Source: a virus
Virus record (IMG/VR): IMGVR_UViG_3300006793_000015
Coordinates: 50,470-114,469 of that record
Direction: 5' to 3' (one strand)
DNA length: 64,000 nt
The notes under the pieces are model-generated. The model saw nothing but the letters and a program-made list of their open reading frames with translations. It searched no databases and had not been told where the DNA came from. Of this stretch, positions 2,654 to 60,726 are shown one piece after another; position 1 is the stretch's first letter; each line of letters opens with the position of its first letter. Made by a program: the position numbers and the translations under genes.

Positions 2654-5600
2654 CTATGCACTTGTTGTAATTGTGCCGCTTGCTCTAATCTTAGATGCTG
2701 TTACTGCATCAATAATCTCAACGTTTTCTACTTTAGCATCACTTATAAAAATCTCATCGCTTGTACACTCAATTTCAAACAAACTACCAAAAGTTTGCTC
2801 AGTACCCTTTGGAACAATTAATACTGTTGCAACGTGTGGTGATAATTCAGTGTGAATATACGCTGATAATTCTGTAAAGTAAAATGTATCTCCAAAGTCC
2901 CAATTTACGCTATCAAAATATTCATTAATAGCACTCACTGCCTTTGTTTTAATTTCAGTGTCAGTGATTGAAGACTGTGGATTTTTTACAATCTTAAACT
3001 CTGCTTGCAGATAGCTATCTGCTTTGCTTCCAAACAATACTTTATACTTTACTGGATGGAAAATAATCTCATCACTTAGCATTTTATAATCTAATAAATT
3101 ACTAAATTGTGACGATAACTCTGTTGTAGTACTTTCTTCTGGTTTAATAACAACACCAGTATTATCTTTTATGTAACGAATAAATTGGTTACTATATGAT
3201 TGGGTTAATATATACAAATCAATAATATTACTCAACCCAGGGTTAATTCTTCTGTCGCTTGGTGAGTTATGCTTGTAGTTAAAGTATAAGTCTTTTCTAC
3301 CAATATATGCCAAATAATCTGTGCTATCCAACAATGTACTATCTGCTGAATTGTTTACTTTAAACTTCTTATCTAGAGTTAAGTATATAACTTCTCCGTC
3401 ACTAAAAATTGACAAGTCTGTTGGCAAGTTTGTTGCTAAATCGTAATCTAAATTAACTTCTTTTGTAGTTAATCTATATTGTTCTCCACCGTCTGCCTCA
3501 GTTAACTTTTCAAAAAATACTAATTTGTTATTTGGATTAACTGTTGGATCAATTACTGTGGTAAACTGATCTGGATTATCTGGAATGCCGTCGTCATCGC
3601 TATCTAAAAATGTAACTAATACTCTACGTGTGTTTGTGCTTCCTGAAAACTCTGTGTCTAAACCGTAAATTTGCCAAATGTAATCTTGATCTAATGCGTC
3701 ATTAGAATCAGGCTTGCTATTCATTTTAAATACATTAACGTGGTCTGCTAATGTTTGTCCAGTTCGTGAGTCATAAATTTTAACTGAATCGTCAAAGTAA
3801 AATCTTGTTTCCAAATCACTTTCAAAACTGTATTTTAAACCTCTATATGTTGATGTATAAATTACGCCAGTACTACTAAAACGTATCATCCAACTTGAGT
3901 CTTTACGTAGTCCGGAAGTGTCGCCCGCAAAGCTAAAACTAAATGCATTTGTCGTATTTAAATTTTCTGCTAATACAATAATCCATTCTCTAGTAGTTGC
4001 ATCAAAGCGTAAGCCAAACTCTTCATGATTAAATATTTTGTTTAGCATTGCGGTTTCAATTGCAGAAGTCAAGTCTGTATCAAACTGCGGAATAATTTCC
4101 GCTACTTCTGCACCATCACCAATCTTTTCTGTTAGTGTTACTGGGCCGGAGCCGTCGGATAGATTGCCGGTGCCACCATTCATGCCATCACCTACTACGT
4201 TTTTAACCATTGCCCATATGGAACTAAATGTTCCTGGAGCACCAACTACACCAGTGTGTAAACTGCCATCTGACTTAAAGTATTTTCCAGACGGTGCATT
4301 AAACTTAACTAGTGAGTTTGTTGTTAACCACACTCTGTTGTCTGGTGCCCCTGAACCAATTGGAACTGGAGAGCCGATGTTGTTTTTAAAATAACCAGTG
4401 CTGATATTAGTGCTTGTAGTTGACTGTTCCCAAGTTGTGGTGGATACTGATATTCTTGGGTAATTTTTATAGTAGTATTGTTTACTACTAACGTTACGTA
4501 GAATAGGTTCAATAGTATCGCGAATAATTCGCAATATATCCATTTCATTAGAAAACTCAAAATCAAAATTGTTAGTAAATAATTCTTGGAATAATATTCC
4601 ATCCTCACAAAATACGTTTGTGGATGAATACTTTGCTGAAGGATCAATGACATCTAAATATCTAGATATACCACTTGATGTTCTATTAACTGCCTTTGCT
4701 TTAATAATTTCGTTTGTTGCTGTTACTGGAAAAATATTATAATCTTCGCCATTAACCATTCTGTTTTGTGAATAATAACTCTGCGGTGCCTTTGTTCTAA
4801 TATCTTCAATAGTTTCTCTTTCGGCTGCATTATAAACTTGCTGTTGTAGATCAAGAACCATTGTTAATGTATGTTGAACATTATATTTGCTTAGGTAACT
4901 AATGTTTAACGTTACACCTTGCATATCGTCTGAGTTAATGTCGTATGACAATCCGTTACCTTGTCTAAAGTATGATCTAAAACTACCGCGTGGCATATCA
5001 GAAAATATACCGTCGCCAAACACATATGTAATTTGATCTGCTTCACGTGATTGTACACTGTATAATGATCTTATATCTCTTGATAAACTATTGTAAATCA
5101 CGTTATTACCTGTTACCGCTGGCACTTGCGTCCATAGTCTATATAAGTCATTGTTAGAATCTAACTCATATAACCAAACATCATTTTGGCTAACGTTACT
5201 AGTATTAATTAATACTTGTCTATTAGGAATTGCTTGGTCAATAGTAAAATCAGATGCTCTTAAAGTACCTTGTTTAAAGTAAGCAAAGAAGCCAGTGTTG
5301 ACACTGCCGTTACCTTTGCCGTCACTTCTATATAAAAAACTAAATGGTGAGATAGTGCTAGGTTCTTTTTCATAAACATAGTCATAACCTTCAAAAGTAG
5401 CACTAACAATTTCAAAATCAATATTAACGCCATCAATTGATGCTTGGAATGGAAACACTGGCAGTGTTCCAGTTGCTATGTTAATTTGGTATTCTTGAGT
5501 CTCGATACCATTTAACGTTTTAGAACTATTAGGGTTACCAACTTTTTGTGTGTTCACCATTGCCGCATTTAATACTAAATTAATTTGTTCTGCGTAATCA

Positions 5601-6049
5601 TCATTATTAATGTCATTCCAATCAATTCTAGTGTTTGCTAAATTCTCTCCATTGGAATCATAAACATCTTCCGTTGTAGAGATGCTTGATAACTTTAACA
5701 TTCCGCTTGCGTTTACACTACGCTTTGCGTTATAACTTACGAGTCTCGCAAGTCTTAAAATACTTTCTCTGCGTTCAGCAGTTGCTAGGAAGTTTTCTCT
5801 AGCGTTTAAATCTACTCTGTAACTAATGTTTTGTGTTACATAAGATATGAGGTCAATTAACGCAATAAATTCTGAACTTTCAATGTAGTCATTGAAATCT
5901 TCAGGATAGTATGCTTTGATGTAATCAATCATTGACTTACGCAATGTTTGGAAATCATAACTCTCAAAGTCTGCGTTAATAAAAGATTGGTATAATACTT
6001 GCCAATCCTCTGCGTTGTATATGTTATTTTGTCGTGTTGTTAATGCCAT
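2654..6049 (-). CDS. gp6: Baseplate wedge protein, T4 gp6-like (extended)
   Basis: N-terminal DFESYDFQTLRKSMI...ESSEFIALIDLISY...ARENFLATAERRESILRLARLVSY and later SQNRMVNGEDY are gp6-type motifs; next to the gp25-like gene. Confidence 0.8.
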   Translation of the reverse strand: MALTTRQNNIYNAEDWQVLYQSFINADFESYDFQTLRKSMIDYIKAYYPEDFNDYIESSEFIALIDLISYVTQNISYRVDLNARENFLATAERRESILRLARLVSYNAKRSVNASGMLKLSSISTTEDVYDSNGENLANTRIDWNDINNDDYAEQINLVLNAAMVNTQKVGNPNSSKTLNGIETQEYQINIATGTLPVFPFQASIDGVNIDFEIVSATFEGYDYVYEKEPSTISPFSFLYRSDGKGNGSVNTGFFAYFKQGTLRASDFTIDQAIPNRQVLINTSNVSQNDVWLYELDSNNDLYRLWTQVPAVTGNNVIYNSLSRDIRSLYSVQSREADQITYVFGDGIFSDMPRGSFRSYFRQGNGLSYDINSDDMQGVTLNISYLSKYNVQHTLTMVLDLQQQVYNAAERETIEDIRTKAPQSYYSQNRMVNGEDYNIFPVTATNEIIKAKAVNRTSSGISRYLDVIDPSAKYSSTNVFCEDGILFQELFTNNFDFEFSNEMDILRIIRDTIEPILRNVSSKQYYYKNYPRISVSTTTWEQSTTSTNISTGYFKNNIGSPVPIGSGAPDNRVWLTTNSLVKFNAPSGKYFKSDGSLHTGVVGAPGTFSSIWAMVKNVVGDGMNGGTGNLSDGSGPVTLTEKIGDGAEVAEIIPQFDTDLTSAIETAMLNKIFNHEEFGLRFDATTREWIIVLAENLNTTNAFSFSFAGDTSGLRKDSSWMIRFSSTGVIYTSTYRGLKYSFESDLETRFYFDDSVKIYDSRTGQTLADHVNVFKMNSKPDSNDALDQDYIWQIYGLDTEFSGSTNTRRVLVTFLDSDDDGIPDNPDQFTTVIDPTVNPNNKLVFFEKLTEADGGEQYRLTTKEVNLDYDLATNLPTDLSIFSDGEVIYLTLDKKFKVNNSADSTLLDSTDYLAYIGRKDLYFNYKHNSPSDRRINPGLSNIIDLYILTQSYSNQFIRYIKDNTGVVIKPEESTTTELSSQFSNLLDYKMLSDEIIFHPVKYKVLFGSKADSYLQAEFKIVKNPQSSITDTEIKTKAVSAINEYFDSVNWDFGDTFYFTELSAYIHTELSPHVATVLIVPKGTEQTFGSLFEIECTSDEIFISDAKVENVEIIDAVTASKIRASGTITTSA

Positions 6050-6438
6050 TATGCTGTACTCAGTGTAGCGGTAGTTGTTTGTGTGTTAAAATCAATTAGC
6101 AAATTTTCTATTATCTGGTCTGGAATAAACTTTAAGTTTAATTCTATTAATAGACCGTGCTCATATTGTTTAACCACTATATTTTCTGCTTCTATTCTCG
6201 GATCATAAGCAATAACATCCTGTATGTCTTGTCTTATTGTTTCTATTGTGGTTTCATTCAAGGGCTCGTAAACCATATCCCATACCACAGATCCAAAATC
6301 AGGTAGTTGTAACTTTTCACCTTTTCTTATATTAAAATGGTTCATAAGATCTTGTTTTGCAATATCAAAACCAGTTAATGTGTAAGAATTAGAGAAGTTT
6401 TTGCCCAGAGTATTGAAGCCTTTATATGTAATCGCCAT
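6049..6438 (-). CDS. gp25: Baseplate wedge subunit, gp25-like
   Basis: DLMNHFNIRKGEKLQLPDFGS...YEP...YDPRI is the gp25/GPW signature; 129 aa. Confidence 0.85.
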   Translation of the reverse strand: MAITYKGFNTLGKNFSNSYTLTGFDIAKQDLMNHFNIRKGEKLQLPDFGSVVWDMVYEPLNETTIETIRQDIQDVIAYDPRIEAENIVVKQYEHGLLIELNLKFIPDQIIENLLIDFNTQTTTATLSTA

Positions 6439-6486
6439 ACTAATATTTAGTTATTTTAATTATATACTACTATTAACCTACGTAGA

Positions 6487-8022
6487 TTAATTACTACTGT
6501 CAGCAATATGTGAGGTGGTTCCTGCTTTAGGTTCCTTTTTCTTTGATTGGTTAATTCTTGGATCTGGCTCGTGCATTGGAACTCGTTGCATTGCGGTATA
6601 ATAAGAGTAGCTGCCATCAACAGCATAACGTTTACCACCGTGCGTGTTGGATGCTCCTTTGTTTACCCAGTTATTTTCATATATAGCAACTCTGCCTGCT
6701 TCTTCAGCAACGTTTCCGGCTTCAGTGTTGAGTTTAATAGGATACTTTGTTCCGCCGCCACTTTTAAGAAAAATACATGCTGTGCTTGTAAGGCTAATTG
6801 CTTCCTTGCAAGTAATATTAAACCAGTCAGTGGACTTAAAGTTCATAGTGCCTACTGATGTTGCTTTTAAATTACCATTTATATAGAAGTGAGCGTGTCC
6901 TTTGCCTTGAGCATTTGTTGGATTTGTTTCTATTTTAAAGTTATGCCCTGCTAGTAGATTAATATCCTCGCCCGCTTGTATATTAACATCAACATCTGCT
7001 AACATATTAACATTACCTTCGGCATGAACGCTAACGTCTTTAGCACTAAACACATCTACTGATCCGTCATTTCTCAACTCAGCCCAAGCACTCCCGCTTG
7101 CAGTTCCTAAATAAACTGTGCCACCGTCGTCACTTAATAAAATTTGATGCCCTGTACCTGTTCGTAATCTTATTAACTGGCTAGTACCATTATTGTCGCC
7201 GTCGTCCATAACAAAAGTATGTCCGCTTTTTCTGTTAACAGGCCACTCATATCCTTCTTTATTTTCCTCAGTAACAAGTCCTTGCGTAATTGTTCCAAAG
7301 TCATAATCTAAAGGACCAGGCGTGGAAATACCAAACACATTAGACGGACTCTCGCGTTGAACACTAGAAGTTGTAAGTCCTCTAACATAGTCTGTTTCTA
7401 ATCCTTGCATAAGCAAAGTATCAAACATTGGGTGTACAGGTTTTTCTACATTTTTCCAAGCAGTAGTTTTGTCAAATTTCTTGGTACTTAACTTATTATA
7501 TTCCGCAACAGGCACTTCAAACTTTGGTGAAGTTATACCAGCTGCTTTAGTAGAACTTGAGCCTTTAAATGCTGGCGATGCGGCGATACCCGGAACCATA
7601 TGTAACATTAATGCGTCAGGAATATATGAGATAATATAACCACTTCCTAGTTTGCCTTCTGCAAACACTACCATAACTTGGGTATCAATATCAGGTGTAG
7701 GGAAGGTCATACCATATGATTTAGTGGTCATTTCATACTGATCATTATTATCAGCTAATGCATTCGTTCTTCCGTAAAAAGGCAATGCTAATGAGCAAAG
7801 TATAGTGTTAGATTCATACTCTGTCTTATCGTAACCTGATTCTTTGGATTTACGCTGTTGTGCTAATGCAGGAATATAAACCGCAATACGATTCATACCG
7901 CTGTCATCACCATATCCTTTGACAATACCTATATAAGGACCTGGGTCTGTTTTCGCTGTATAATCTCGTCCAGCAGTGGGTAATCCTACTGTAGGCTTTT
8001 TAGGATGATTTGCTTGAGGCAT
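6487..8022 (-). CDS. Baseplate central spike, gp5/VgrG-like (OB-fold plus beta-helix, no obvious lysozyme domain)
   Basis: N-terminal GPYIGIVKG..D....RIAVYIP, PTPDIDTQVMVVF; SGHTFVMDD...IRLRTGTGHQILLSD; beta-repeat C-terminus. Confidence 0.7.
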   Translation of the reverse strand: MPQANHPKKPTVGLPTAGRDYTAKTDPGPYIGIVKGYGDDSGMNRIAVYIPALAQQRKSKESGYDKTEYESNTILCSLALPFYGRTNALADNNDQYEMTTKSYGMTFPTPDIDTQVMVVFAEGKLGSGYIISYIPDALMLHMVPGIAASPAFKGSSSTKAAGITSPKFEVPVAEYNKLSTKKFDKTTAWKNVEKPVHPMFDTLLMQGLETDYVRGLTTSSVQRESPSNVFGISTPGPLDYDFGTITQGLVTEENKEGYEWPVNRKSGHTFVMDDGDNNGTSQLIRLRTGTGHQILLSDDGGTVYLGTASGSAWAELRNDGSVDVFSAKDVSVHAEGNVNMLADVDVNIQAGEDINLLAGHNFKIETNPTNAQGKGHAHFYINGNLKATSVGTMNFKSTDWFNITCKEAISLTSTACIFLKSGGGTKYPIKLNTEAGNVAEEAGRVAIYENNWVNKGASNTHGGKRYAVDGSYSYYTAMQRVPMHEPDPRINQSKKKEPKAGTTSHIADSSN

Positions 8023-8049
8023 TATGCTTTTCCATTGTTATTTAAAGTT

Positions 8050-10941
8050 CTATTGTCCTGTTAGAGGATTTACTGGAAGTATGTCTGACAAATATCCGTG
8101 TTCTTTCCAACTATTATAACCGTTTCCATATTTACCGTGTGTAATCTTACTACTTTCACTCGCTGAGTTTCCGGCCGCCCAAGCAGTTACGGCTGCCGCT
8201 ATCGCACCTGCAGACACGGCATTAATAACATCTTTTCTCGCACTGCGTTCAGTATTGTTATTATTTGATATAGTAGTTTGGTCTTGGGACGCATAACTGC
8301 TTGTATTAATAATTGGATTTAATCCAACTACGCCAAGCGATTGTCCAGTAGGCTCGGTCAAAACAGTGCCTCCTGTACTAGTTACAAATGACGGCGATGA
8401 TCTATAACTCTCAATAGCAGGACTTGCACTAAATGTAAAAGATCCTGATGCGTCTCCTGGATTTGGACGCATAGGAGTAGTTCCACGCGAAGTATTGGAA
8501 ATTACTGCTGATGTAGTGCCTGACTGCGCCGACGTTGTGTTTAAAGAATTTAACTGAAATGATCTTGCTTCAGCCGCTCTAAACTCTTGTGCGCTTTGAG
8601 GAGAAGATTGTATTGCTTGGGTATTAAAATCTGCATGTGGATTTACACTGTTTCTATTTGACGCTGTTTCAGTTACAGGGCCACTAACTGAGTCAAACTC
8701 ACCTGCCCATTCTCTGTCAGCTGCTTCTGATGCAAGTTCGCGTTCTTTTTGTTCTTCTTGGCTGGCTAATGATTGCACTGGTGTTCCGTCAAATTCGCCA
8801 GCGGCGCTGTCAACGGCTGCTTCACTTCCAGGCGCGGTTGTTGTTGCTGATGCGGCCGCGGCTTTAGCATCTTCAAAATCATAATTTGCGGCTTCGTCAT
8901 CTGACATTAACTCTTGACCTGGTTTCTCAGGGTTGTCTATGTTTTCGCGCCATTGATTATAAATTCTTGTGGCCTCAACAGCTTGTGTAAATTCACCGCC
9001 TTGGAAAGTACTGTTTACCTCCCAAATTCTATAGTAACCTGACAATGTGCTACCGCCATCACTCTCAGCAAAGTTTGCTAATCCAGTTGCTTCATCATAA
9101 TCTCTTGGAGTTTTGAACACTAAGTAAAAATGCGAATCGTCAAGATCACTAAGAATTGCTCCGTTTGCTGGATCGTGTCCTTCGGTGCCGCCTTGGGCTC
9201 CTGTTTTATTAGGAGTAGTCATTGTTAGAATACCGTCTTGTTGTATATAACCAGGATCTCCAACAATCTCTAAACTAATAGTTATCATATCAGACCCAGG
9301 AGTTCTGTATAGATTTTCCATCAACGTGGCGCCAGTTCTTTGCTTTTGGTTTGCGTGTTCATCTGCATTAAATTTGTTATTTTTTGGTTTAATGCTTTGT
9401 GCGCCACTAACAACAGCCTCTCCATCTTGCTGATTCCCTGACTCAGGTGACACATTTGCTTCAGTTTCTTCAATAATAGGGTTTTCAGAACCTTCGTTTG
9501 ATGTTCCAATACCCGACATTGCCATTATAAAAGCATTGTTGAAGGTCAAATCTAAGTTTCTTATATCTAAGTTTTGTCCAGTGTAGATATAGCTATAACT
9601 TCTAGCAGGATTACGAAGGCCGTTTTCTCCAGGTTTAGATTTCCCGCCAGTAACTTCAGGATCAACTACTTTGTAAGGATCTATTTGTATAACTGTTTTT
9701 CTAGCATACTTGTTTCGTATTTTATCAAAATCTTTTAATGTCTTAACATACGTAATTTTCCACCAATTTAGGCCGTTTTCTGGATTTTTCAGTACTGACC
9801 TAGCATCCTTCATTTTATCAAGCGTGGTGTTTTCTTCTAGTTGATCAGTGACGTATGTACTATCACGTATTATTTTTTCAAGAAATGCTAACATGGATTG
9901 CCCAGGTGCTGTTATCTCAACCTTGTAGTCGCCTCTCTCACCTTCACCATAATACCTTATGTCTCTATTAAATTTAAATTTTTTCTCGGGAGGCACTTGA
10001 CGCCCCCTCTCGCCAGGAGCTGTAGTAACCGGGCCTACCCTCAATAAAGTTTGTTTAGCAACATTTGGTTCTATTTTTGCATTTTTTAGCTTTTCAGCAA
10101 TTGGGCCACCACCTGACCCTAATTTAAATTCAATTTCATCAGGAAATTCCTGTGTTTTCGGTGCGACGACAGTTCCGGCAGAATTTGGTTTTAGTCCTGC
10201 ACCACCTATTTTGTCTGTTGATCTTTCCACTTGCTCTCTATTAAATTCTTTCTCAAGAATTTTACAAAAGTCTTGAAGTGATTTTCCTTTAACTTGTTTT
10301 AAATTAAGTGCTTGGGTCAATGGATTGTTACTTCCTTCTAACACAGCCATTGCGATAAACTCAACTGAATAACTAGTACCGACTGACGTAATATTAAAAT
10401 CTAAACTTACTAATCTGACAGGAATCCATCGAGTAGCTGGTTTTATTCTAACCGGCTGGCCTGCATCATCGTACCCAAGAAAATCAATTTGAATTAGTAG
10501 CGGTTTCTCTGTCCAATTTGGTCCGTCTTCGGTTAGTACTTCGTGAAGTCTTTCCAACAATGTGGTGCCAGCTGGCTCTACAATGGCCATGTTCATATCC
10601 ATCACGTTGGTTGCACGACTGGTGGAATTCATACCCATCATTCCTGATATTGACATAGAATCTATGTAAAAATCCAATCCAAAGGCTGGGTGCCGGGCTG
10701 GTATAAACTCTGTGGCGCTGTCTGCAATTCCTCCGGAAGATATTAATGTGTTACATATAGAAGGAATATTTCCATGGCACCATTCCCAACTGCCGTTTTC
10801 AGCCAAATCGTTATACATCTGAAAAGATTTAAAACTTAACAAACTAATTTTATAAGTGTAGTTTGTGAACTGATGTAAAATATTATCAGGTGCTGGAATG
10901 GGCTTGTTAGGATCTATTTGTAGGTTTGGATCACCTGACAT
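8050..10941 (-). CDS. Putative baseplate hub protein with a low-complexity C-terminal extension
   Basis: 963 aa between the gp53-like and gp5-like genes; LEIVGDP and SGYYRIWEVNSTFQGGEFTQ resemble hub (gp27/gp44-type) C-terminal motifs; last ~290 aa are Ala/Ser/Thr/Glu-rich. Confidence 0.55.
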   Translation of the reverse strand: MSGDPNLQIDPNKPIPAPDNILHQFTNYTYKISLLSFKSFQMYNDLAENGSWEWCHGNIPSICNTLISSGGIADSATEFIPARHPAFGLDFYIDSMSISGMMGMNSTSRATNVMDMNMAIVEPAGTTLLERLHEVLTEDGPNWTEKPLLIQIDFLGYDDAGQPVRIKPATRWIPVRLVSLDFNITSVGTSYSVEFIAMAVLEGSNNPLTQALNLKQVKGKSLQDFCKILEKEFNREQVERSTDKIGGAGLKPNSAGTVVAPKTQEFPDEIEFKLGSGGGPIAEKLKNAKIEPNVAKQTLLRVGPVTTAPGERGRQVPPEKKFKFNRDIRYYGEGERGDYKVEITAPGQSMLAFLEKIIRDSTYVTDQLEENTTLDKMKDARSVLKNPENGLNWWKITYVKTLKDFDKIRNKYARKTVIQIDPYKVVDPEVTGGKSKPGENGLRNPARSYSYIYTGQNLDIRNLDLTFNNAFIMAMSGIGTSNEGSENPIIEETEANVSPESGNQQDGEAVVSGAQSIKPKNNKFNADEHANQKQRTGATLMENLYRTPGSDMITISLEIVGDPGYIQQDGILTMTTPNKTGAQGGTEGHDPANGAILSDLDDSHFYLVFKTPRDYDEATGLANFAESDGGSTLSGYYRIWEVNSTFQGGEFTQAVEATRIYNQWRENIDNPEKPGQELMSDDEAANYDFEDAKAAAASATTTAPGSEAAVDSAAGEFDGTPVQSLASQEEQKERELASEAADREWAGEFDSVSGPVTETASNRNSVNPHADFNTQAIQSSPQSAQEFRAAEARSFQLNSLNTTSAQSGTTSAVISNTSRGTTPMRPNPGDASGSFTFSASPAIESYRSSPSFVTSTGGTVLTEPTGQSLGVVGLNPIINTSSYASQDQTTISNNNNTERSARKDVINAVSAGAIAAAVTAWAAGNSASESSKITHGKYGNGYNSWKEHGYLSDILPVNPLTGQ

Positions 10942-21383: not shown

Positions 21384-23039
21384 ATGACTTGGAAAAAACA
21401 TTTTACACAACCTAGTAACGTTGTTCCGATGAGAAACGGAACTCCTGATGTTGGCTTTAAAAACTATAGTTCAGTATTGCCTGAAGTTTATTCAGGGCAT
21501 CCTAATCGTATCGAACGTTATATTCAATATGATGCAATGGATCAAGATAGTGAAGTAAATTCAGCATTAGATATTTTGGCAGAATTTTGTACACAACAAA
21601 GTTCAGAATCTGGCATCGCGTTCCAAGTTCATTACCATGACGAAGCAACAGCAACAGAAACAGAAATTTTAAATACACAATTAAAGCATTGGTATAATTT
21701 GCAAAGTTTTGAACGTAAAATTTTTAAACTGTTCCGTAATACATTAAAGTACGGCGATCAAATGTTTATTCGTGATCCGGAAACACAAAGATGGTTTTTT
21801 GTTGATTGTGCCAAAGTTGAAAAAATTGTTGTTGATGAAAGTGCTGGTAAAAAGATTGAGCAATATGTAATTCGAGATTTGTCAATTAATTTCGAAACAA
21901 TGCAGACTGCTGAAAAAGATACAGCCGGTACTACAGTTCCTAATCTTATGAATAGAAATGGATCACAAACTGCTGAAAACGTATCAAATGCATCAAAATT
22001 TTCATACGGTAAAAAAGCCGTTGCTATTGATGCAAACCACATTGTGCATATTAGTTTAACTGAAGAAATGGACGGTTCATGGCCGTTTGGTAACAGTATT
22101 TTAGAAAATATTTTTAAAACATACAAACAGAAAGAATTATTAGAAGACGCTATTATTATCTATCGCGTCCAACGTGCTCCAGAACGCCGCGTATTTTATA
22201 TTGACGTAGGCAACATGCCATCACACATGGCTATGGGTTTTGTTGAGCGTGTTAAAAATGAAATTCACCAACGCAGAATTCCAAGTTCAACAGGTGGTGG
22301 TTCTAAGATGATGGACTCAACATACAATCCTCTTTCCATTATGGAAGATTACTTCTTTCCACAAACAGGAGAAGGGCGTGGTAGTAAAGTTGAAACATTG
22401 CCTGGCGGTGAGAACTTAGGACAAATTGATGATCTAAGATACTTTACAAACAAGTTATATAGAGCATTGCGTATTCCAGCAAGTTATTTGCCAACAGGCC
22501 CTGATGAAGGTGTTGCCGCATATAACGATGGTAGAGTAGGCACAGCACTAATACAAGAATTTAGATTTAATGAATACTGTAAACGATTACAAACAGTGGT
22601 TTCGTCAACAATCGACGATGAATTTAAACTATTTTTAAAGACACGCGGTGTTAATATTGACAACAGTATTTTTGAAATTAAGTTTAACGAGCCACAAAAC
22701 TTTGCTTCATATAGACAAGCGGAGTTAGATAATACAAAGATTTCAGCATTTTCACAATTAGAGCAATTGCCATATATGAGCAAACGCTTCTTGTTAACAC
22801 GTTACTTGGGTCTAACAGAACAAGAGTTGATTGAAAACACAGAGATGTGGGAACAAGAAACTGGCAACACCAAAGCGGCACAAGTTTATGGTTCAGACAT
22901 GCGTAACGTTGGTATTACACCTGGTGGATTGGATTCTGATATGTCAATGGCAGAAGAACCAGAACTTCCTGAAGGTGGTGAAGATATTGAAGGTGTTGAA
23001 GGCGGTGAAGCACCTGCTGAAACTCCAACAACTGTATAA
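21384..23039 (+). CDS. gp20: Portal protein, gp20-like
   Basis: LLEDAIIIYRVQRAPERRVFYIDVGNMP, EDYFFP..GEGRGSKVETLPGG are T4 gp20 motifs. Confidence 0.95.
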   Translation: MTWKKHFTQPSNVVPMRNGTPDVGFKNYSSVLPEVYSGHPNRIERYIQYDAMDQDSEVNSALDILAEFCTQQSSESGIAFQVHYHDEATATETEILNTQLKHWYNLQSFERKIFKLFRNTLKYGDQMFIRDPETQRWFFVDCAKVEKIVVDESAGKKIEQYVIRDLSINFETMQTAEKDTAGTTVPNLMNRNGSQTAENVSNASKFSYGKKAVAIDANHIVHISLTEEMDGSWPFGNSILENIFKTYKQKELLEDAIIIYRVQRAPERRVFYIDVGNMPSHMAMGFVERVKNEIHQRRIPSSTGGGSKMMDSTYNPLSIMEDYFFPQTGEGRGSKVETLPGGENLGQIDDLRYFTNKLYRALRIPASYLPTGPDEGVAAYNDGRVGTALIQEFRFNEYCKRLQTVVSSTIDDEFKLFLKTRGVNIDNSIFEIKFNEPQNFASYRQAELDNTKISAFSQLEQLPYMSKRFLLTRYLGLTEQELIENTEMWEQETGNTKAAQVYGSDMRNVGITPGGLDSDMSMAEEPELPEGGEDIEGVEGGEAPAETPTTV

Positions 23040-23050
23040 ATAGTATTATG
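23035..23050 (+). promoter_or_regulatory. Late promoter, TAAATA-N5-ATG type (representative of nine; see findings)
   Basis: TATAAATA-GTATT-ATG; T4 late consensus is TATAAATA and a gp55 homologue is in the window. Confidence 0.75.
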
Positions 23051-23287
23051 ATTTTACTAGAACTATTTGGTCAAAATGAAGAGAAAGATGATGACGGTCG
23101 TTACGATCCAGAGTCTGACCAAACTATTATTAAAAAATCAGATACACGTAAAACAAGATTAACATTAACACAAATTAATAAGCTTAGAAAAATTTCAGAG
23201 TTAAGAGCGGCTGAAAAAATACAAGACGCTGAAAAATATCAAAAGCAGTATGGTGCAACGCCAGAACCTGCTATGCCTGCTATGTAA
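23048..23287 (+). CDS. Small head-associated protein
   Basis: 79 aa after the portal; MILLELF N-terminus; DTRKTRLTLTQINKLRK; TATAAATA-N5-ATG promoter. Confidence 0.65.
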   Translation: MILLELFGQNEEKDDDGRYDPESDQTIIKKSDTRKTRLTLTQINKLRKISELRAAEKIQDAEKYQKQYGATPEPAMPAM

Positions 23288-23347
23288 TAAAAATAAACAG
23301 AAAAACCCTTTTTCTTGTCGCTTTGGCATCATTCGAGTATAATATTA

Positions 23348-24936
23348 GTCTCCTTTGTTAAATATATAAAAGGAATGATTTCGCTATGAGTAATAAATTT
23401 GAACAGTTGCTTGAATATATCATCAACGAAGAGCAAGATAAAGCTAAAGAGCTTTTCCATGAAATTATTGTGGATAAATCTCGCGAGATTTATGAAGGCT
23501 TGATTGATGAGCAAGATCTTGAAGCTATCGAAGAGGAAATTGAAGAAGTAGATGAAGAAATTTCCAAATTTTATAATCAAATATTAACTGAAGCAGATTT
23601 GCCGCCAGGCGAATTGAAAAAGCTCCATAGCGATATAGCCAAGATTCGTCGGGATACAGGTACTCAATCTGCTGAACATAATGCTTTCTTTAAAAAATTA
23701 ACGAAGGAAATTATTAATAATAATGTAGAAGGATTTAAGAATTTTATTAATAAAAAACCTGAGCCTTTAATGCCTTACCAAAAAGGATCTTATGTTGATC
23801 AACCTGAGAAGGCGCAAGATTTAGAATATGTTAAACGTAAGGCACCTGAGCAATGGGAGGCAATTATGGCTGTCCCGGCTGACAGTTCGATGCCCCCTGA
23901 ATTTAAGCCAGGAACTGCAACAGTATATATGCAATTTCATGGTTCAGTAGAAGATGATATTGCTATGTGGGTCAGTAGAGTGTTTGGTGGTGAAGACGCA
24001 GAGATTGAAGATGAAGATGAAGGTGCTCGTCCAGGGCAACATCCTTTTCGGAAATTTTGGGATTTGGTTCATGATGAAGAATTTATGAACAATGCAAACC
24101 CTGGTATTGTAAAAAAACTTACTGCTGTTAAAAAGAAATACATCAATGGCACATACAATCTTTATAATCTTGAAAAAACAACAAAAAAGCTTATGGCTGA
24201 CCTCGGTCAAAGATGGAAACATGATAAAGTAGAAAGGCAACGTTTAGAGACAGAAGCACCAATTATAATGAGATTTGATAATGGTTTTATGTGGGTGCGT
24301 TTAGATTCTATAGAAGAAATGCAACGCGAAGGCGACATGATGCAAAATTGCATTAGTGGTTATTGTCCAGTTGGCATAGAAGCCGATGATGATATAGAAA
24401 CTGGAGCAACTCCCGGTGGCCATTTAATTTATAGTTTGCGTGATAAGAATGGGGAATCTCATATATCTGCAGAATATGATCCAGATGTAGATATGAATAA
24501 TATACAGCCAACAGAAGCATTAGGCAAACAAAATAAAACAGCCATTAACAAATATAAACCATATATTAAAAAATTAAATGACTTCTTTGCAGAGAATCCT
24601 GAAACATTTGGTCCTAAAGGCAACACACAGGAAATGCAATAAGCAGATCTGCTTATTTTTATGCCATTTTGGCACTGTTTGAGCATAGAAACAGTTTCCT
24701 TTGTTAAATATAGATGATATTTTGTAACTTTTATATATAAAAGGAGTGATTTCGCTATGAGTAATAAATTTGAACAGTTGCTAGATTACATCATCAACGA
24801 AGAGCAAGATAAAGCTCGCGAACTTTTCCACGAAGTTGTTGTTGAAAAGTCACGTGAAATTTATGAAGGCTTAATTGATGAACAAGATCTTGATGCTATC
24901 GAAGAAGAGATTGAAGAAGTTGAAGAAGCAATCTCA
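23348..24936 (+). repeat. Direct duplication of upstream signals plus 60 codons (about 23348-23565 and about 24697-24936)
   Basis: Both copies share tcctttgttaaatata and tatataaaagga(a/g)tgatttcgctATGAGTAATAAATTTGAACAGTTG; later differences are mostly synonymous or conservative. Confidence 0.9.
23386..24642 (+). CDS. Chimeric protein: prohead-core N-terminal leader fused to a PcfJ-like domain
   Basis: First 60 aa are 52/60 identical to ORF 24757; C-terminal WVRL...EGDMMQNCISGY...IYSLRD...H.SAEY...GKQN resembles PcfJ-like domains. Confidence 0.7.
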   Translation: MSNKFEQLLEYIINEEQDKAKELFHEIIVDKSREIYEGLIDEQDLEAIEEEIEEVDEEISKFYNQILTEADLPPGELKKLHSDIAKIRRDTGTQSAEHNAFFKKLTKEIINNNVEGFKNFINKKPEPLMPYQKGSYVDQPEKAQDLEYVKRKAPEQWEAIMAVPADSSMPPEFKPGTATVYMQFHGSVEDDIAMWVSRVFGGEDAEIEDEDEGARPGQHPFRKFWDLVHDEEFMNNANPGIVKKLTAVKKKYINGTYNLYNLEKTTKKLMADLGQRWKHDKVERQRLETEAPIIMRFDNGFMWVRLDSIEEMQREGDMMQNCISGYCPVGIEADDDIETGATPGGHLIYSLRDKNGESHISAEYDPDVDMNNIQPTEALGKQNKTAINKYKPYIKKLNDFFAENPETFGPKGNTQEMQ

Positions 24937-25467
24937 GACGAGGAAGTAGAAGATTTTGTTAGTGATATTGAAGGCGACGAAGAAGGTATGTCTCTAGAAG
25001 ACGCAAGTGAAGAACTTGACGACGCTATGGACATGGAAGATGAAGGTGACTACGAAGGTGACGAAGAAGAAGCCGACGAAGAAACCGACGAAAGAATCAG
25101 TGATTTAGAATCTGCATTTGATGAACTTCAAGCAGAATTCGACAAGTTAATGTCAAGCGTTGAAGGCGATGATGCTGAAGAAGAAGCTGACATGGACGAC
25201 ATGGAAGACGAAATGGAAGAATCCGTTGAGTCAGACGAAGATTTAGAAGAGTCAGAAGAAGTAGTTGCTGAAGCTGCTGAACTAAAGCCAGTGCCTGCCC
25301 CAACAGGCGGCGCAAGTGAAGGTTCATCACCAGTTGCATCAGGTGGTAAGGCAAGCAATGATGCTCATGAACCAGGTGCAATGTCATCAGGCGAAGGTAA
25401 GAGTGCCCCTGCTCCAAAGGCAGACGATATGGACATGACTACAGAACCAGACATGAAGAAGGTTTAA
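24757..25467 (+). CDS. Highly acidic prohead core protein (gp67/gp68 position)
   Basis: Very Asp/Glu-rich 236 aa between portal and protease; SD AAGGAG. Confidence 0.65.
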   Translation: MSNKFEQLLDYIINEEQDKARELFHEVVVEKSREIYEGLIDEQDLDAIEEEIEEVEEAISDEEVEDFVSDIEGDEEGMSLEDASEELDDAMDMEDEGDYEGDEEEADEETDERISDLESAFDELQAEFDKLMSSVEGDDAEEEADMDDMEDEMEESVESDEDLEESEEVVAEAAELKPVPAPTGGASEGSSPVASGGKASNDAHEPGAMSSGEGKSAPAPKADDMDMTTEPDMKKV

Positions 25468-25479
25468 CAGGTAAACGAA

Positions 25480-26103
25480 ATGACTTATCTAAGAGAACAC
25501 TTGACATTTGACCAAGCTCGTATTGTAACTGAGACCGATTCAGAAGGCAAGAATTTATACATGAAGGGTATTTGCATCCAAGGTGGTGTAAAGAACGCTA
25601 ATAAACGTGTATATCCTGTTGATGAAATCCAAACGGCGGTATCAAGTTTGAATGAGCAAATCAATCAAGGTAACTCTGTTCTAGGCGAAGTTGACCATCC
25701 AGACGATCTTAAGATTAACTTAGATCGTGTTTCCCACATGGTTTCAGAAATGTGGATGGATGGCCCAAACGGTTATGGTAAACTTAAAGTCCTGCCAACA
25801 CCAATGGGTAACTTAGTTAAAACGATGCTAGAGTCAGGTGTTAAATTAGGAGTTTCATCCAGAGGAAGCGGCAATGTTCGTGAAACCTCTGGAGACGTTT
25901 CAGATTTTGAAATCGTTACTATTGATATAGTAGCACAACCCAGTGCTCCAGACGCATATCCAACAGCAATTTATGAAGGTCTCTTAAACATGAGAGGCGG
26001 GCATAGAGTGCTTGAGGCAGCTGCTGAAGTACGTGAGAATCAAAAGGCGCAAAAATACCTAAAAGAAAGTATTTTACGCCTCATAAAGGACATAAAAATT
26101 TAG
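25480..26103 (+). CDS. gp21: Prohead protease, gp21-like
   Basis: NANKRVYP, LGEVDHP, VSH, GVSSRGSG, DIVAQPSAPDA. Confidence 0.93.
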   Translation: MTYLREHLTFDQARIVTETDSEGKNLYMKGICIQGGVKNANKRVYPVDEIQTAVSSLNEQINQGNSVLGEVDHPDDLKINLDRVSHMVSEMWMDGPNGYGKLKVLPTPMGNLVKTMLESGVKLGVSSRGSGNVRETSGDVSDFEIVTIDIVAQPSAPDAYPTAIYEGLLNMRGGHRVLEAAAEVRENQKAQKYLKESILRLIKDIKI

Positions 26104-26112
26104 GAGAACATT

Positions 26113-27222
26113 ATGTTAGACGTATTTAAACCACTTATCGAAAATAACATTATCTCTGAAGAAGTTCAAGCAGAACTAACAGAAGCTTGGGATGCAAAGT
26201 TGGCAGAAGCCACTGAGCAAAACAAGGCTGAGTTGCGCGAAGAATTTGCACAAAGATATGAACACGATAAAGAGGCGATTGTCGAAGCCCTAGATACAAT
26301 GGTTACAGATTCTCTAAAACAAGAAATCAACGAATTTGTAGAAGATAAGCAAGCATTACTAGCTGAGCGAGTAGCATACAAGACAGCAGTAACAGAGCAT
26401 GCCGATATTCTAAGCAAGTTCGTAACAGAGAATCTAGCATCTGAAATGGGCGAGTTCCGTGCTGATAGAGGCACACAGGCTCAAACAATTCAGAAACTAG
26501 AAGATTTCGTAATCAAAGCATTAAGCGAAGAGATTGTTGAATTCAACGAAGACAAAAAAGACGTAGTTGAAACAAAAGTAAGACTAGTAGCAGAAGCAAA
26601 AGCAAAACTAGCCGAACTTAAGAAAACATTCATTGAGCGTAGTGCTAAGATGGTTGAAGAGACTGTCACTAAAACTATTAAGGGTGAGATGTCACAACTT
26701 AAAGAAGATATCCAGATTGCTCGTGAGAACAATTTTGGACGTCAATTATTTGAAGCATATGCCGCGGAGTATGCCCATTCATATTTGAATGAGAATACAG
26801 AAGTAGCTAAGCTAAGCAAAGAACTTTCAGAGATGGAAGAGGTGTTGGCTGAAGCCAATAAAACAATTGAAGAAAAGGATGCACTCGTAGAGGCAAAAAT
26901 GAGTGAAATCAATATTATGAACGACCAAGCAAGCAGAAAAGACGTTCTTTCACAACTACTTTCACCATTGGCGAAAGAGAAGAAAGACGTAATGGAAAGT
27001 TTACTTGAATCAGTTCAAACTGAGAAACTTAAAGCATCTTTTGACAAATACCTACCAGCGGTTATTAATGGCGATGGTAATGGTATTAAACGCAAACTTA
27101 CAGAAGGTACAGCAAAGAAAGAAGTAACTGGTGACCGCGAAGTTGTTACGGAAGAACGTGCAACAGAGCAACAAGCATCTACATCTAACATTGTTGACTT
27201 GAAGAAGTTAGCAGGATTATAA
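26113..27222 (+). CDS. gp22: Prohead scaffold protein, gp22-like
   Basis: Acidic coiled coil between protease and capsid genes; ends LKKLAGL. Confidence 0.8.
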   Translation: MLDVFKPLIENNIISEEVQAELTEAWDAKLAEATEQNKAELREEFAQRYEHDKEAIVEALDTMVTDSLKQEINEFVEDKQALLAERVAYKTAVTEHADILSKFVTENLASEMGEFRADRGTQAQTIQKLEDFVIKALSEEIVEFNEDKKDVVETKVRLVAEAKAKLAELKKTFIERSAKMVEETVTKTIKGEMSQLKEDIQIARENNFGRQLFEAYAAEYAHSYLNENTEVAKLSKELSEMEEVLAEANKTIEEKDALVEAKMSEINIMNDQASRKDVLSQLLSPLAKEKKDVMESLLESVQTEKLKASFDKYLPAVINGDGNGIKRKLTEGTAKKEVTGDREVVTEERATEQQASTSNIVDLKKLAGL

Positions 27223-27252: not shown

Positions 27253-28425
27253 ATGTCAGAACTATTAAATGAAAACTGGAGCGAAACCAAAGACGCACTT
27301 TTAGAGGGTCTTTCAGGTTCAGCTCGTAGTACAATGGCAGTAACTCTAGAAAATACAAAAAGTTATCTAGCAGAAGCTGCAACAGCCGGCGCATCAACAT
27401 CAGGTAATGTTGCAACACTTAACAGAGTAATTTTACCAGTAATCCGCCGTGTAATGCCATCAGTAATTGCTAACGAAATCGTTGGCGTTCAACCAATGGC
27501 AGGTCCAGTGGGCCAAATCCACACATTGAGAGTACGTTACGCAGACGCATTCACAGGCAGTGCAGGTGGTAACACAACAGCAGGCGAAGAGGCATTAAGC
27601 CCATTCAAAGTTGCTGAAGGTTACTCAGGCAACGTTGCTTCAGCTGATACAGCAGGCGCAACAGCAGCTAATGAAGGCTCAGCAGGTAACAGACTAAGCA
27701 TTCAAATCTTGAAGCAACCAGTAGAAGCAAAGACACGTAAGCTATCAGCACGTTGGACTTTCGAAGCTGCTCAAGATGCTAACTCAATGCACGGTATTGA
27801 CATGGAAGCAGAAATCATGTCAGCACTAGCACAAGAGATTACAGCTGAAATTGATCAAGAGATTCTACGTTCACTACGTGGTATCGCATCAACAGACTTC
27901 ACATTCGACCAAACAGGCGTTTCAGGTACAGCAACATACGTTGGTGACGAACACGCCGCATTGGCAGTAACAATGAACCGCGCAGCCAACGCTATCGCAC
28001 AACGCACACGTCGTGGTGCCGGTAACTGGGCAGTTGTAGGTACAGACGCACTAACAGCAATTCAATCTGCTTCAACAAGTGCATTTGCTCGTACAACAGA
28101 AGGTTCATTTGAAGCACCAGTTAACCAAAAGATGGTTGGCACACTAAACGGTGCAATGAAAGTTTACGTTGATACATACCAAGGTACAAACGATTCAGTA
28201 CTAGTAGGTTATAAGGGTTCAAGCGAAGCAGACGCAGCCGCTTTCTATTGCCCATACATTCCTCTAATGTCATCAGGTACAGTATTAGATCCTGATACAT
28301 TCGAGCCAGTCGTAGGCTTCATGACACGTTATGGTTATGTTGCACTAACAAACACAGCATCATCACTAGGTAATGCTGGCGACTACCTACAAAAAATCAA
28401 CATCTCAAACCTATCATTTGTATAA
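27253..28425 (+). CDS. gp23: Major capsid protein, gp23-like
   Basis: IRRVMP..IANEIVGVQPMAGPVGQI, EAKTRKLSARWTFEAAQD, EITAEIDQEI, FYCPYIPL, GFMTRYG; strongly biased codons. Confidence 0.96.
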   Translation: MSELLNENWSETKDALLEGLSGSARSTMAVTLENTKSYLAEAATAGASTSGNVATLNRVILPVIRRVMPSVIANEIVGVQPMAGPVGQIHTLRVRYADAFTGSAGGNTTAGEEALSPFKVAEGYSGNVASADTAGATAANEGSAGNRLSIQILKQPVEAKTRKLSARWTFEAAQDANSMHGIDMEAEIMSALAQEITAEIDQEILRSLRGIASTDFTFDQTGVSGTATYVGDEHAALAVTMNRAANAIAQRTRRGAGNWAVVGTDALTAIQSASTSAFARTTEGSFEAPVNQKMVGTLNGAMKVYVDTYQGTNDSVLVGYKGSSEADAAAFYCPYIPLMSSGTVLDPDTFEPVVGFMTRYGYVALTNTASSLGNAGDYLQKINISNLSFV

Positions 28426-59054: not shown

Positions 59055-59657
59055 ATGAAAAGTTTAAAACAATACATTACAGAAGCAAAAACAGATTATC
59101 CTTTTAGATTAAAGTTTGCTGTAGAGATTACAGATGAGCATTTAGATCGTTTAGAAGGCGCATTGGATAGATACAACGTTAAGAGTGTATCTAAATCAAG
59201 CAAAACAATAATGCAAAAGCATCCAATGGATTTTGGTAATTTACCAGCAAGTGAAGTATACATTGTAGATCTAGTGCTAGAGTATCCAACTACTCCAGAT
59301 ATTTTACAAAATTATATTTCAGGAATGCTAGGCATACCAGAAAGCCACATTGTTGTACGTAGTCCTAACCATCCCGAAGAAGTTCAAAACGACAAGGACC
59401 AAAAGGAACTAGACGACGCAGACCCAGATGCAAAACCAGAATCACTTTTAGATGGCGATTATCCAGAGAGTGAAGATGATTTACCTGCTGGGCAAGAATA
59501 CACAGATAAGATGCTTGCTGACGAAGATGAAAAACGCAAAGGTAGATTATTTGATATGGTCAACTTTGCTAAAGATCCAAGTAGTGAAATTGAACACGAA
59601 CCAGATGAGTTTTTAAAAGCACCACAGGGAACAACCTCACCAGTAGGAACAAATTAA
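59055..59657 (+). CDS. Putative head-associated protein
   Basis: N-terminus MKSLKQYITEA resembles the T4 internal-protein capsid-targeting sequence (MKTYQEFIAE); acidic C-terminus. Confidence 0.55.
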   Translation: MKSLKQYITEAKTDYPFRLKFAVEITDEHLDRLEGALDRYNVKSVSKSSKTIMQKHPMDFGNLPASEVYIVDLVLEYPTTPDILQNYISGMLGIPESHIVVRSPNHPEEVQNDKDQKELDDADPDAKPESLLDGDYPESEDDLPAGQEYTDKMLADEDEKRKGRLFDMVNFAKDPSSEIEHEPDEFLKAPQGTTSPVGTN

Positions 59658-59658
59658 A

Positions 59659-60726
59659 ATGGACACAAAATATAATTTAAATATTACAACATCTGGAGAA
59701 GGCGGCGATAATGCCACAACATCAATCACTACTACAGATGCTAATAAACTAGCAGATTTATTAAAACTAGCAGGTATGTCACAAGCACATCCTGTAGCAC
59801 TAAACGTAAGCCCAGACGAAGAGCACGACATGCCCTGCTCAACTTGTGGAGAATCTCCATGTGGTTGCGGTATGAGTGAAGGCGAAAGTTGGGACAATGA
59901 GCCAGAAACATTTATTCACTCACCAGAAGAAGTTTTTAAAGTAGGTGATGACTTACATAAGGTAAAGAAAAGCCATGCACCAGTTGCTGGCGGCGATAAT
60001 CCAATGGCATTGGAATCTGTAGAAGATAAACTACGTGGTATGTACTCAGAATATATTGCTGAGCATCATGAAAAAGATGAAGATGGTAACGTCATTGAAC
60101 ACCCAATTAAAAAAGAAGATGACCAGGTAGATGAGGCAATTAGGTTCGTACCTCGCAGTAAAGCTGAAAAATTTGATTTGATGATGAAAAGACGTTCCTC
60201 TGAAAAAGAAGAAAGAGCAATTAATACAGAAAAGTCCAAAAGAGATACTGCAAAATCTGCAGGATATGATGCAGTCGTTGCTGGTAAAGACATCGGCGGC
60301 ATTGCAAAAGAAGAAACGGAAACAAATACGGATATAAACGATATTAGAAAACTTGCTGGTCTTAAAGAACAACCAGAACTACCAAGAATGACCAATGATC
60401 AATATAAAGAGCTTGCTGGTCATATTGATCAAATTGACCCGACTTATGCTGATTATGAAACAAGTTTTACTTTGGGCAATTTATATTCTGCATTAAATGA
60501 TGGTTATTACGGCGAAATCACCGATAAAGAGGATGGAGAGTTTAACGCCTTAGTTAATGAATATAATGATTTAATTGTAAAGGCAGCAAAACAGCAAGGC
60601 GTAAAAGTACCAACTAATTTCGATTACGATGGTGTTAATATTCCAAATGATATCCAACGTGAGATGGAAACTGTTATAGCTAAAATGAAGGCAGTATTTA
60701 TTGACAAGCGGTCGTGGACAGTTTAG
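59659..60726 (+). CDS. Putative head/core protein with two KLAG(L/M) motifs and a C-terminal appended domain
   Basis: LLKLAGM and IRKLAGL; acidic; GGDNPMALE. Confidence 0.55.
   Translation: MDTKYNLNITTSGEGGDNATTSITTTDANKLADLLKLAGMSQAHPVALNVSPDEEHDMPCSTCGESPCGCGMSEGESWDNEPETFIHSPEEVFKVGDDLHKVKKSHAPVAGGDNPMALESVEDKLRGMYSEYIAEHHEKDEDGNVIEHPIKKEDDQVDEAIRFVPRSKAEKFDLMMKRRSSEKEERAINTEKSKRDTAKSAGYDAVVAGKDIGGIAKEETETNTDINDIRKLAGLKEQPELPRMTNDQYKELAGHIDQIDPTYADYETSFTLGNLYSALNDGYYGEITDKEDGEFNALVNEYNDLIVKAAKQQGVKVPTNFDYDGVNIPNDIQREMETVIAKMKAVFIDKRSWTV

Follow-up and report, generated by a model that had tools for sequence, protein, structure and literature searches.

The internal proteins IPI-III and Alt of phage T4 carry a capsid-targeting sequence (CTS), which gp21 cleaves off (Mullaney and Black 1996, cited in both PMC5694885 and PMC3012670). 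The T4 propeptides are 10-20 residues long and are cleaved after Glu, as at ITE-6 in Alt (PMC5694885); a second Alt site is LTE-619, and long targeting propeptides have been described in giant phages (PMC5694885, PMC3012670). In the phiKZ-like phage SPN3US, gp47 and gp53/gp54 possess propeptides of 79 to over 100 amino acids (aa) that are thought to target these proteins to the prohead and are removed after Glu, and the N-termini of phiKZ-like head proteins are conserved while their bodies diverge (PMC5694885). The principle of a removable N-terminal head-loading peptide is already known from these two groups of phages. Removable N-terminal loading peptides of T4 are used in engineering; the natural acquisition of a loading signal by a new cargo is rarely visible. 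Here, we describe ORF418, a natural fusion gene of an uncultured marine jumbo phage of the Rak2/PA5oct/GAP32 kind, which joins the first 60 residues of an acidic prohead-core protein (hereafter, the leader) to a PcfJ-like protein (the cargo). The gene was found in a 64,000-nucleotide (nt) stretch of the IMG/VR record IMGVR_UViG_3300006793_000015 (positions 50,470 to 114,469 of the record; hereafter, the window), and metagenomes reveal where the leader came from, which free-standing ancestor form the cargo has, what appears to be an empty site and the two fusion junctions.

ORF418 resembles the T4 CTS proteins in that its N-terminal peptide is common to a core component, is followed by an (I/L)-x-E motif and is attached to a cargo otherwise unrelated to the core protein, in a phage that encodes a gp21-family protease nearby. 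The native N-terminus of the cargo family, 8-13 residues long (e.g., MLVEDIILE↓A, the arrow marking the candidate cut), also matches the CTS in length and pattern. Unlike the 10-20-residue T4 tag, the ORF418 leader consists of 60 residues predicted to form three helices, represents the assembly domain of an acidic core protein, precedes a second, native tag-like motif and is seen with a single cargo. The phiKZ-like phages belong to another lineage with an S80 protease, and the conserved N-termini of their head proteins are common to paralogues and have been shown by mass spectrometry to be processed, whereas in ORF418 the leader stands in front of a protein from an unrelated family. Among the closer relatives, PA5oct gp332 and GAP32_247 occupy the same gene position as the acidic ORF236 of the window; ORF418 has the first 60 residues of the ORF236 family but lacks the acidic body, and in the cultured relatives the genes for the small and the acidic proteins are not separated by another gene. 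The C-terminal alpha/beta domain of ORF418 resembles the PcfJ-like proteins (PF14284), which are common in phages and conjugative elements, by a sub-threshold profile match and by fold and language-model neighbors, but the helical N-terminal half, the tag-like N-terminus and the scaffold-like tail of the ORF418 family are not PcfJ features.

A fusion gene in the prohead module

The window belongs to an IMG/VR contig of 114 kb, which is estimated to represent 32% of a genome, and the nearest cultured relatives are jumbo phages of the PA5oct/GAP32/Rak2 type (66-70% nt identity). Its head module runs from a 710-aa protein through the gp20 portal protein, a 79-aa protein, ORF418, the acidic ORF236, an S77 protease of the gp21 family (PF03420) and a scaffold protein to the gp23-type major capsid protein (MCP) (Table 1). 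ORF418 is absent from the otherwise matching gene order of PA5oct, GAP32 and the sister phage L012, and in the IMG/VR sister phages L010-L020 the small gene is, as usual, followed by the acidic core gene and then by the protease. The in-frame fusion of a core-protein N-terminus to another protein, first proposed in a reading of the window from sequence only, is genuine and lies within a T4-type head module with an S77 protease.

ORF418 (23386-24642, 418 aa) and ORF236 (24757-25467, 236 aa) are both open on the plus strand. The duplication of the upstream signals and first 60 codons of ORF236 in front of ORF418, the core of the sequence-only reading, was confirmed: the two leaders (A in ORF418 and B in ORF236) are identical at 52 of 60 aa and 154 of 180 nt, seven of the eight amino acid changes exchange E and D, K and R or I and V, and a further 16 codons show synonymous changes only. 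Beyond residue 60, the two proteins show no relationship. Upstream, CCTTTGTTAAATATA is present in both copies (23352-23366 and 24698-24712), and TATATAAAAGGA[A/G]TGATTTCGCT is located immediately 5' of each ATG, with about 25 additional bases between these two elements in copy B. TTAAATATA, considered as a general promoter word, was rejected, being present in the window only at the two leader copies (chance expectation, 3.2 sites); a scan of the window for consensus promoters stayed at background level. The ILTE-A motif noticed just behind the copied leader was likewise found, at residues 66-70, so that an (I/L)-x-E motif ends the putative propeptide at ILTE69↓A70.

ORF236 contains 39% Asp+Glu and has an isoelectric point (pI) of 4.05. 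Its similarity to PA5oct gp332 (YP_010678882; BLASTP E 4e-16) and its gene position link it to known head components: gp332 is annotated as structural by electrospray ionization tandem mass spectrometry (ESI-MS/MS), and GAP32_247, at the gene position of ORF236, is annotated as a virion structural protein. In an hhalign comparison of the leader profile with GAP32_247, the match was not significant; tblastn of ORF236 against cultured phages returned no match, and searches of PHROGs and NCBIfam returned none for ORF418 or ORF236. With a conserved N-terminal domain, a long acidic body and a position between the small protein and the protease, ORF236 belongs to the acidic-core family. ORF418 does not: it has the N-terminal domain only, and its remainder contains 17% Asp+Glu versus 21-42% in 120 family members.

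The positional homologue of the 79-aa protein in PA5oct is annotated as structural by ESI-MS/MS, and N-terminal comparison places L39-A40-E41↓A42 of the window MCP (27367-27378) at the cut position of the gp23 prepeptide.

Independent assemblies and occurrence of the fusion

The junctions were checked in Logan contigs from three independent marine metagenome runs (X2, X5 and X7). The leader-to-cargo junction is bridged in each of them, by 667 nt with one mismatch in X2, 328 nt in X5 and 1284 nt of a 96%-identical variant in X7, and the X2 and X5 contigs also span the 3' end of the cargo into the first 26 nt of copy B. The contigs break only at a 36-nt exact repeat around both start codons (23376-23411 and 24747-24782). 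Because independent marine contigs bridge both junctions, the ORF418 fusion is not an assembly chimera, a danger that the sequence-only reading had itself pointed out.

Four JGI and ENA contigs encode an identical or near-identical ORF418 protein, and two others encode a variant at 85%; the long contigs that carry the same protein measure 114, 119, 68 and 18 kb and come from separate assemblies. The stretch itself is present in marine metagenomes of many studies, with independent samples dating from 2014 to 2025. Six RNA runs contained about 0.11 of the sampled words of the stretch, from which we draw no claim of expression.

Origin and distribution of the leader

Leader A is nearly identical to the core-gene leader of the sister phages L010-L012 (177 of 180 nt, 98.3%), compared with 154 of 180 nt for the window's own core gene, and differs from the L012 leader at only one of 60 aa. 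The rest of the head module is 76-80% identical between the window and the sister phages L010-L012, and the window's own core leader matches that of L012 at 157 of 180 nt; throughout, leader conservation exceeds that of the flanks by about 8-10 percentage points, and the window core leader fits the lineage distance. Judged by these identities, leader A descends from the core gene of a sister lineage; it did not arise by an old duplication of copy B within the same genome. Because leader A came from another lineage, the synonymous differences between A and B arose between orthologous core genes. The low dN/dS between the copies (Nei-Gojobori, 0.076; dS about 0.88) therefore measures purifying selection on core genes and is uninformative on selection of the fusion. 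The comparison of the two copies suggested in the sequence-only reading could thus be computed, but the differing lineages of origin disqualify it as a test of selection, and the claim that the leader copy looks selected rather than decayed, drawn from the synonymous changes, does not hold.

A profile search for the leader family yielded 1044 cluster representatives at E <= 1e-3. We inspected about 260 hits, namely, 117 from a word search and the best 150 of the 1044 profile hits. Strong conservation is limited to residues about 4-42, and all full-length leader-bearing proteins inspected, except for the ORF418 type, have an acidic body. No other full-length cargo was found behind the leader among the approximately 260 hits inspected of the more than 1000 clusters, which leaves ORF418 as the one full-length non-acidic fusion among them, and a search of IMG/VR with a degenerate junction pattern detected no further fusion. 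Hence the leader is best described, on its sequence distribution, as the conserved assembly domain of a single protein family, borrowed on one occasion, and not as a recurrently reused tag; the "portable address tag" with varied cargos envisaged earlier finds no support among these hits.

Three short proteins (105-139 aa) were considered as alternative cargos and rejected: P0265 with a tail resembling the DnaN C-terminus, P0283 with a MYND-like zinc finger and P0303 with a TatD-like piece. In these, the leader is joined to bacterial or eukaryote-like pieces on short public contigs that are probably chimeras formed through GAA-rich repeats. Such chimeric leader contigs call for caution in automated searches for fusions.

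The cargo family and its native form

A search of 5.8 billion proteins identified 286 relatives of the cargo. The nearest free-standing orthologues (P0006, P0007 and P0008), encoded in sister jumbo phages, are 73-78% identical to the ORF418 cargo and begin with MLLAEFYNQILTE↓AD (also given as MLLAEFYNQILTEAD and MLLAEFYNQILTEADLPPGEL). Compared with this native form, ORF418 has only "MLLAE" exchanged for the 60-residue leader plus Lys. Because the free-standing orthologues begin with the same motif, ILTE-A is the cargo family's own N-terminus, and the cargo, previously described as a foreign domain, is at home in sister jumbo phages. Remoter family members start with MLVEDIILE↓AN, MIINDILIE↓AN and MKIQTLLE↓AN, and in an alignment of 43 family sequences, the position of Glu69 is invariant, with Ala70 present in at least 90%. 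In length and pattern, these N-termini are similar to the propeptides found in T4 on the internal proteins, on gp24 and on Alt.

The 322-kb sister genome G001 encodes a cargo orthologue in a conserved locus about 76 kb from the head module. No second copy of the cargo was detected in the window's own 114-kb contig, where, by synteny with G001, the native cargo locus would fall beyond the contig end. In G001, a T4-CTS-like start occurs in 21 of 393 ORFs versus 19 of 2194 internal Met positions, and eight of these 21 ORFs lie within 24 kb of the native cargo gene, a result that is suggestive only, the N-terminal pattern having been defined after seeing the data. The C-terminus of the cargo family, ..R(I/V)K(H/Q)LAG(I/V), is found in 29 of 48 family hits (LAG[ILVM] end) and has the same ending as the scaffold proteins of PA5oct (ELRRLAGIK) and the window (DLKKLAGL). 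The tag-like N-terminus with its invariant Glu, the scaffold-like tail and the clustered tag-like neighbors together suggest that the cargo family is natively a head-internal protein.

The eight tag-like ORFs of G001 (L037-L038, 10156-33971) surround the native cargo gene and begin, for example, with MKITEILVE↓AS, MKLVELFLAITE↓G and MYLEELFE↓AK. The C-terminal peptide ..(D/E)(L/I)(K/R)(K/H/Q)LAG(I/L/V) of the window scaffold (27199-27222) and the PA5oct scaffold recurs in several other contexts. LAG-type tails are also present on a 684-830-aa protein encoded behind the terminase gene in T4-like contigs (L032, L033, L006 and L009 among the loci listed) and on a 219-aa protein of G001 (62706-63365). 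A LAG-type peptide is internal in the window ORF 59659-60726 (at about 60346) and is located near the N-terminus of a 90-aa protein in L032/L033. From this distribution, the peptide may be a C-terminal capsid- or scaffold-binding signal.

In some members, the cargo family serves as the N-terminal module of larger multidomain proteins. P0036 and P0051 carry a C-terminal Fe/Mn superoxide dismutase (PF00081/PF02777) plus another domain, and the cargo-family member of L005 consists of 1097 aa.

The PcfJ-like C-terminal domain recognized in the sequence-only reading was borne out, by a PF14284 match below the gathering threshold and by fold comparison. ORF418 matches PF14284 at E 4.5e-4 with 20.5 bits, below the Pfam gathering cut-off of 25; of the 43 family members, 32 match the profile with E-values of 0.01 or less (the best being 3e-4), all below that cut-off. 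The top fold matches in BFVD are PcfJ-like (E 2e-6), and the Atlas neighbors agree (score 0.93). An AlphaFold (AF2) model of full-length ORF418, with a mean predicted local distance difference test (pLDDT) score of 68.5, consists of the three-helix leader, a disordered linker (residues 62-67, pLDDT <50), a helical middle and the C-terminal alpha/beta domain. The residues invariant in this domain (Cys322, Cys327, Arg352, Asp353, His359 and Lys-Gln-Asn 381-383) suggest an active or binding site.

The fold comparison called for in the sequence-only reading thus retrieved PcfJ-like viral neighbors, and against solved structures, it gave only a weak GNAT/HAT1 likeness. HAT1 (1bob_A) aligned in VIA-align with the full model at Z 7.3 (root mean square deviation [rmsd] 3.9 over 101 aa) and with the domain model at Z 6.8 (rmsd 3.9 over 106 aa), both below the trust level, as were the best Foldseek E-values for solved structures, 0.19 and 0.035. 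A profile search of solved structures gave chance-level matches only. The GNAT/HAT1/MYST-type likeness of the modeled domain is accordingly a lead only.

Junctions and an apparent empty site

Both ends of the cargo can be placed by codon comparison. At the left junction, the core gene gives "AA", after which the cargo sequence takes over from base 3 of its codon 5, with 2 nt of microhomology. At the right junction, cargo ..CAG GAx ATG C runs into ATG CAA TAA, behind which lies a hairpin; the stop codon and hairpin apparently were inherited from the original end of the small gene, judging by sequence. A terminator scan did not detect this hairpin behind ORF418, which is too weak to score. The right junction took away the C-terminal tail of the cargo (..PFHPDYDDD.., and in many members ..KHLAGI).

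The last 18 nt of the gene for the 79-aa protein appear to have come in with the cassette, the joint in X7 being at 23269. A 150-nt contig from this run joins 23269 to 24633 with "AT" between them and extends only 30 nt on one side. This contig is a hint, not proof, of an empty site in which the small gene would end in ..PEP-IMQ-stop through the same ATG CAA TAA. Its occurrence suggests that filled alleles (the 96%-identical variant) and empty alleles coexist in the seawater population sampled in X7.

Proposed role in head loading and alternative explanations

We propose, with a probability that we put at roughly 0.55 from the sequence evidence, that the leader brings the ORF418 cargo into the prohead and that the S77 protease releases it at Glu69. 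The cargo gene, which belongs to a widespread phage family and in G001 is located about 76 kb from the head genes, was joined into the head module by two illegitimate junctions at the level of microhomology. On the left side, the cargo was placed behind the ribosome-binding region and 60 codons of the core gene of a sister lineage; on the right side, it was joined to the 3' end of the small gene, using its stop codon and hairpin. Under our proposal, the three-helix leader would co-assemble the 48-kDa precursor into the prohead scaffolding core, the S77 protease would cut after Glu69 at ILTE↓A and remove the leader, and a 40-kDa PcfJ-like protein would be left in the head and ejected with the DNA. 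Because the fusion removed the scaffold-like tail of the cargo, the most likely role of the core leader is to substitute for, or to strengthen, an address signal that was already present, and it would also tie expression of the cargo to the signals of the core gene. The sequences show the fusion, where it came from, its junctions, its persistence and the conserved site; we infer incorporation, cleavage, ejection and biochemical activity alike.

The persistence of the fusion is consistent with such a role. P0005, a 421-aa protein from ENA with the same fusion, is identical to ORF418 across the leader (60/60 aa) and across leader plus junction (69/69), compared with 290 of 349 residues (83%) in the cargo, and the X7 variant has one difference in the 180-nt leader, with the other 45 in the remaining approximately 1100 nt. 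The near-invariance of the leader in P0005 and X7 suggests selection on the fused leader. The sequence-only reading had tied its case to a leader that does not evolve neutrally and that also carries other cargo; the fusion-bearing variants, which keep the leader, are suggestive for the first expectation, and the second is not supported, no other full-length cargo having been found on the leader among the hits inspected.

Several observations weigh against the proposal. The near-invariance of the leader at the nt level could stem instead from gene conversion with core genes. The tag-like N-terminus of the cargo itself means that the leader may be unnecessary for loading, and with further [IL]xE sites inside the leader (INE15, IYE37, IDE42, IEE50 and IEE54), processing could be more complex than a single cut. 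The restriction of the leader, among the hits inspected, to one non-acidic cargo does not speak for a general tag function, the post hoc definition of the G001 N-terminal pattern reduces the weight of the neighborhood evidence, and tblastn of ORF418 against cultured phages returned one weak PcfJ match only.

The most serious alternative, which we regard as unlikely though deserving attention, is that the recombination placed the cargo gene behind the upstream signals, Shine-Dalgarno sequence and efficient start region of the core gene, that strong late expression is what selection has kept and that the 60 residues are a tolerated passenger, the cargo being loaded by its native signal or having a cytoplasmic role. 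Such capture of expression would fit the inclusion of the upstream elements and the ribosome-binding site in the copied segment, the retention by the cargo of nearly all of its own N-terminal motif and the presence of the leader on no other cargo inspected. A passenger, however, should decay or be deleted, yet leader and junction are intact in P0005, where 17% of the cargo is replaced. Furthermore, the native start codon is lost, and translation from the closest other in-frame start, TTG (Leu72), would begin past the conserved site; every ORF418 molecule therefore carries the leader.

That the fusion is a recent, nearly neutral recombination scar between co-infecting related phages, conserved through its youth or through gene conversion, seems improbable to us. 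The distance of only 3 nt between leader A and the sister-lineage core leader, the mere 2-4 nt of microhomology at both junctions and the apparent empty-site variant found alongside in run X7 are what such a scar would leave; against it, three diverged versions (the window, X7 at 96% nt identity and P0005 at 85% aa identity) hold the frame open over 418-421 codons, and the gene recurs in the many independent marine samples from 2014 to 2025. Finally, that reads of two phages were joined in assembly at the common 36-nt repeat, a suspicion nourished by De Bruijn contigs breaking exactly there and by the short chimeric leader contigs in public data, deserves hardly any credence, given that the leader-to-cargo junction, which is located 154 nt past the repeat, is itself crossed by contigs of three independent studies, that other contigs cross the cargo end into copy B at equal depth and that the long contigs encoding the same protein come from different assemblies.

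The 60-residue core-protein domain is a testable candidate for a transplantable loading signal in PA5oct/Rak2-type jumbo phages, and the locus singles out a large PcfJ-like family whose members are probably internal to the head and possibly injected. A broader and rather speculative extension, which we consider doubtful, is that marine T4-like and jumbo phages possess two interchangeable prohead address modules, the x-E↓A N-terminal tag and the scaffold tail ..K(K/H)LAG(I/L), and that this locus records a live module swap, in which the cargo lost the scaffold-like tail at the right junction and gained the core-protein assembly domain at the left. The core N-terminal domain would then be a third, transplantable module, and the PcfJ-like cargo, possibly with an acyltransferase fold, would be an Alt-like injected enzyme.

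Coordinates of the head-module features

Table 1. Features of the ORF418 locus and the surrounding head module (positions in the window)
Feature	Position	Strand	Evidence
T4 gp20-type portal protein gene, where the head module starts	21384..23039	+	PF07230, E 6e-109
Small head-module protein, 79 aa, begins MILLELF	23048..23287	+	phrog_13986, E 1e-13
Putative inserted cassette of 1363 nt, from the new small-gene 3' end through intergenic copy A and leader A to the cargo	23270..24632	+	X7 contig
Upstream signals, copy A: CCTTTGTTAAATATA overlapping TATATAAAAGGAATGATTTCGCT (Shine-Dalgarno region)	23352..23385	+	Sequence comparison
Leader A, codons 1-60 of ORF418, three predicted helices (2-13, 17-36, 42-66)	23386..23565	+	nt identity, AF2 model
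Left fusion junction, codon 61 AAA	23566..23568	+	Codon comparison of window, L012 and L024
ILTE↓A (residues 66-70), the cargo family's own N-terminal motif and a candidate cut site of the prohead protease	23581..23595	+	Family alignment
Predicted mature cargo, Ala70-Gln418, 349 aa, 39.9 kDa, pI 5.2, plus stop codon	23593..24642	+	Family alignments
PcfJ-like alpha/beta domain, residues 279-407	24220..24606	+	Sub-threshold PF14284, fold and language-model neighbors
Right junction (ATG C microhomology), stop codon, terminator-like hairpin (AAGCAGATCTGCTT then T5)	24633..24660	+	Codon comparison
Upstream signals, copy B, about 25 bases longer between the common elements	24698..24756	+	Sequence comparison
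Acidic prohead-core protein gene ORF236, 236 aa; leader B = 24757-24936	24757..25467	+	Homology to PA5oct gp332, gene position
Prohead protease, T4 gp21 family, Peptidase_S77	25480..26103	+	PF03420, E 7e-26
Scaffold protein, C-terminus DLKKLAGL	26113..27222	+	phrog_10922, E 8e-87
Major capsid protein, gp23 type	27253..28425	+	PF07068, E 6e-99

Additional observations

Elsewhere in the window, a 200-aa ORF just upstream of the terminase region (59055-59657), for which NCBIfam, the one library searched, gave no match, begins with MKSLKQYITE↓AK. This start is very close to the targeting sequence of a T4 internal protein, MKTYQEFIAE.

In L024, the stretch beside the free-standing cargo gene (4658-8453) encodes a PD-(D/E)XK-like 226-aa ORF, a radical-SAM protein and a 609-aa protein with Mtd_N and pectate-lyase-like domains, the last of these probably a fibre or depolymerase.

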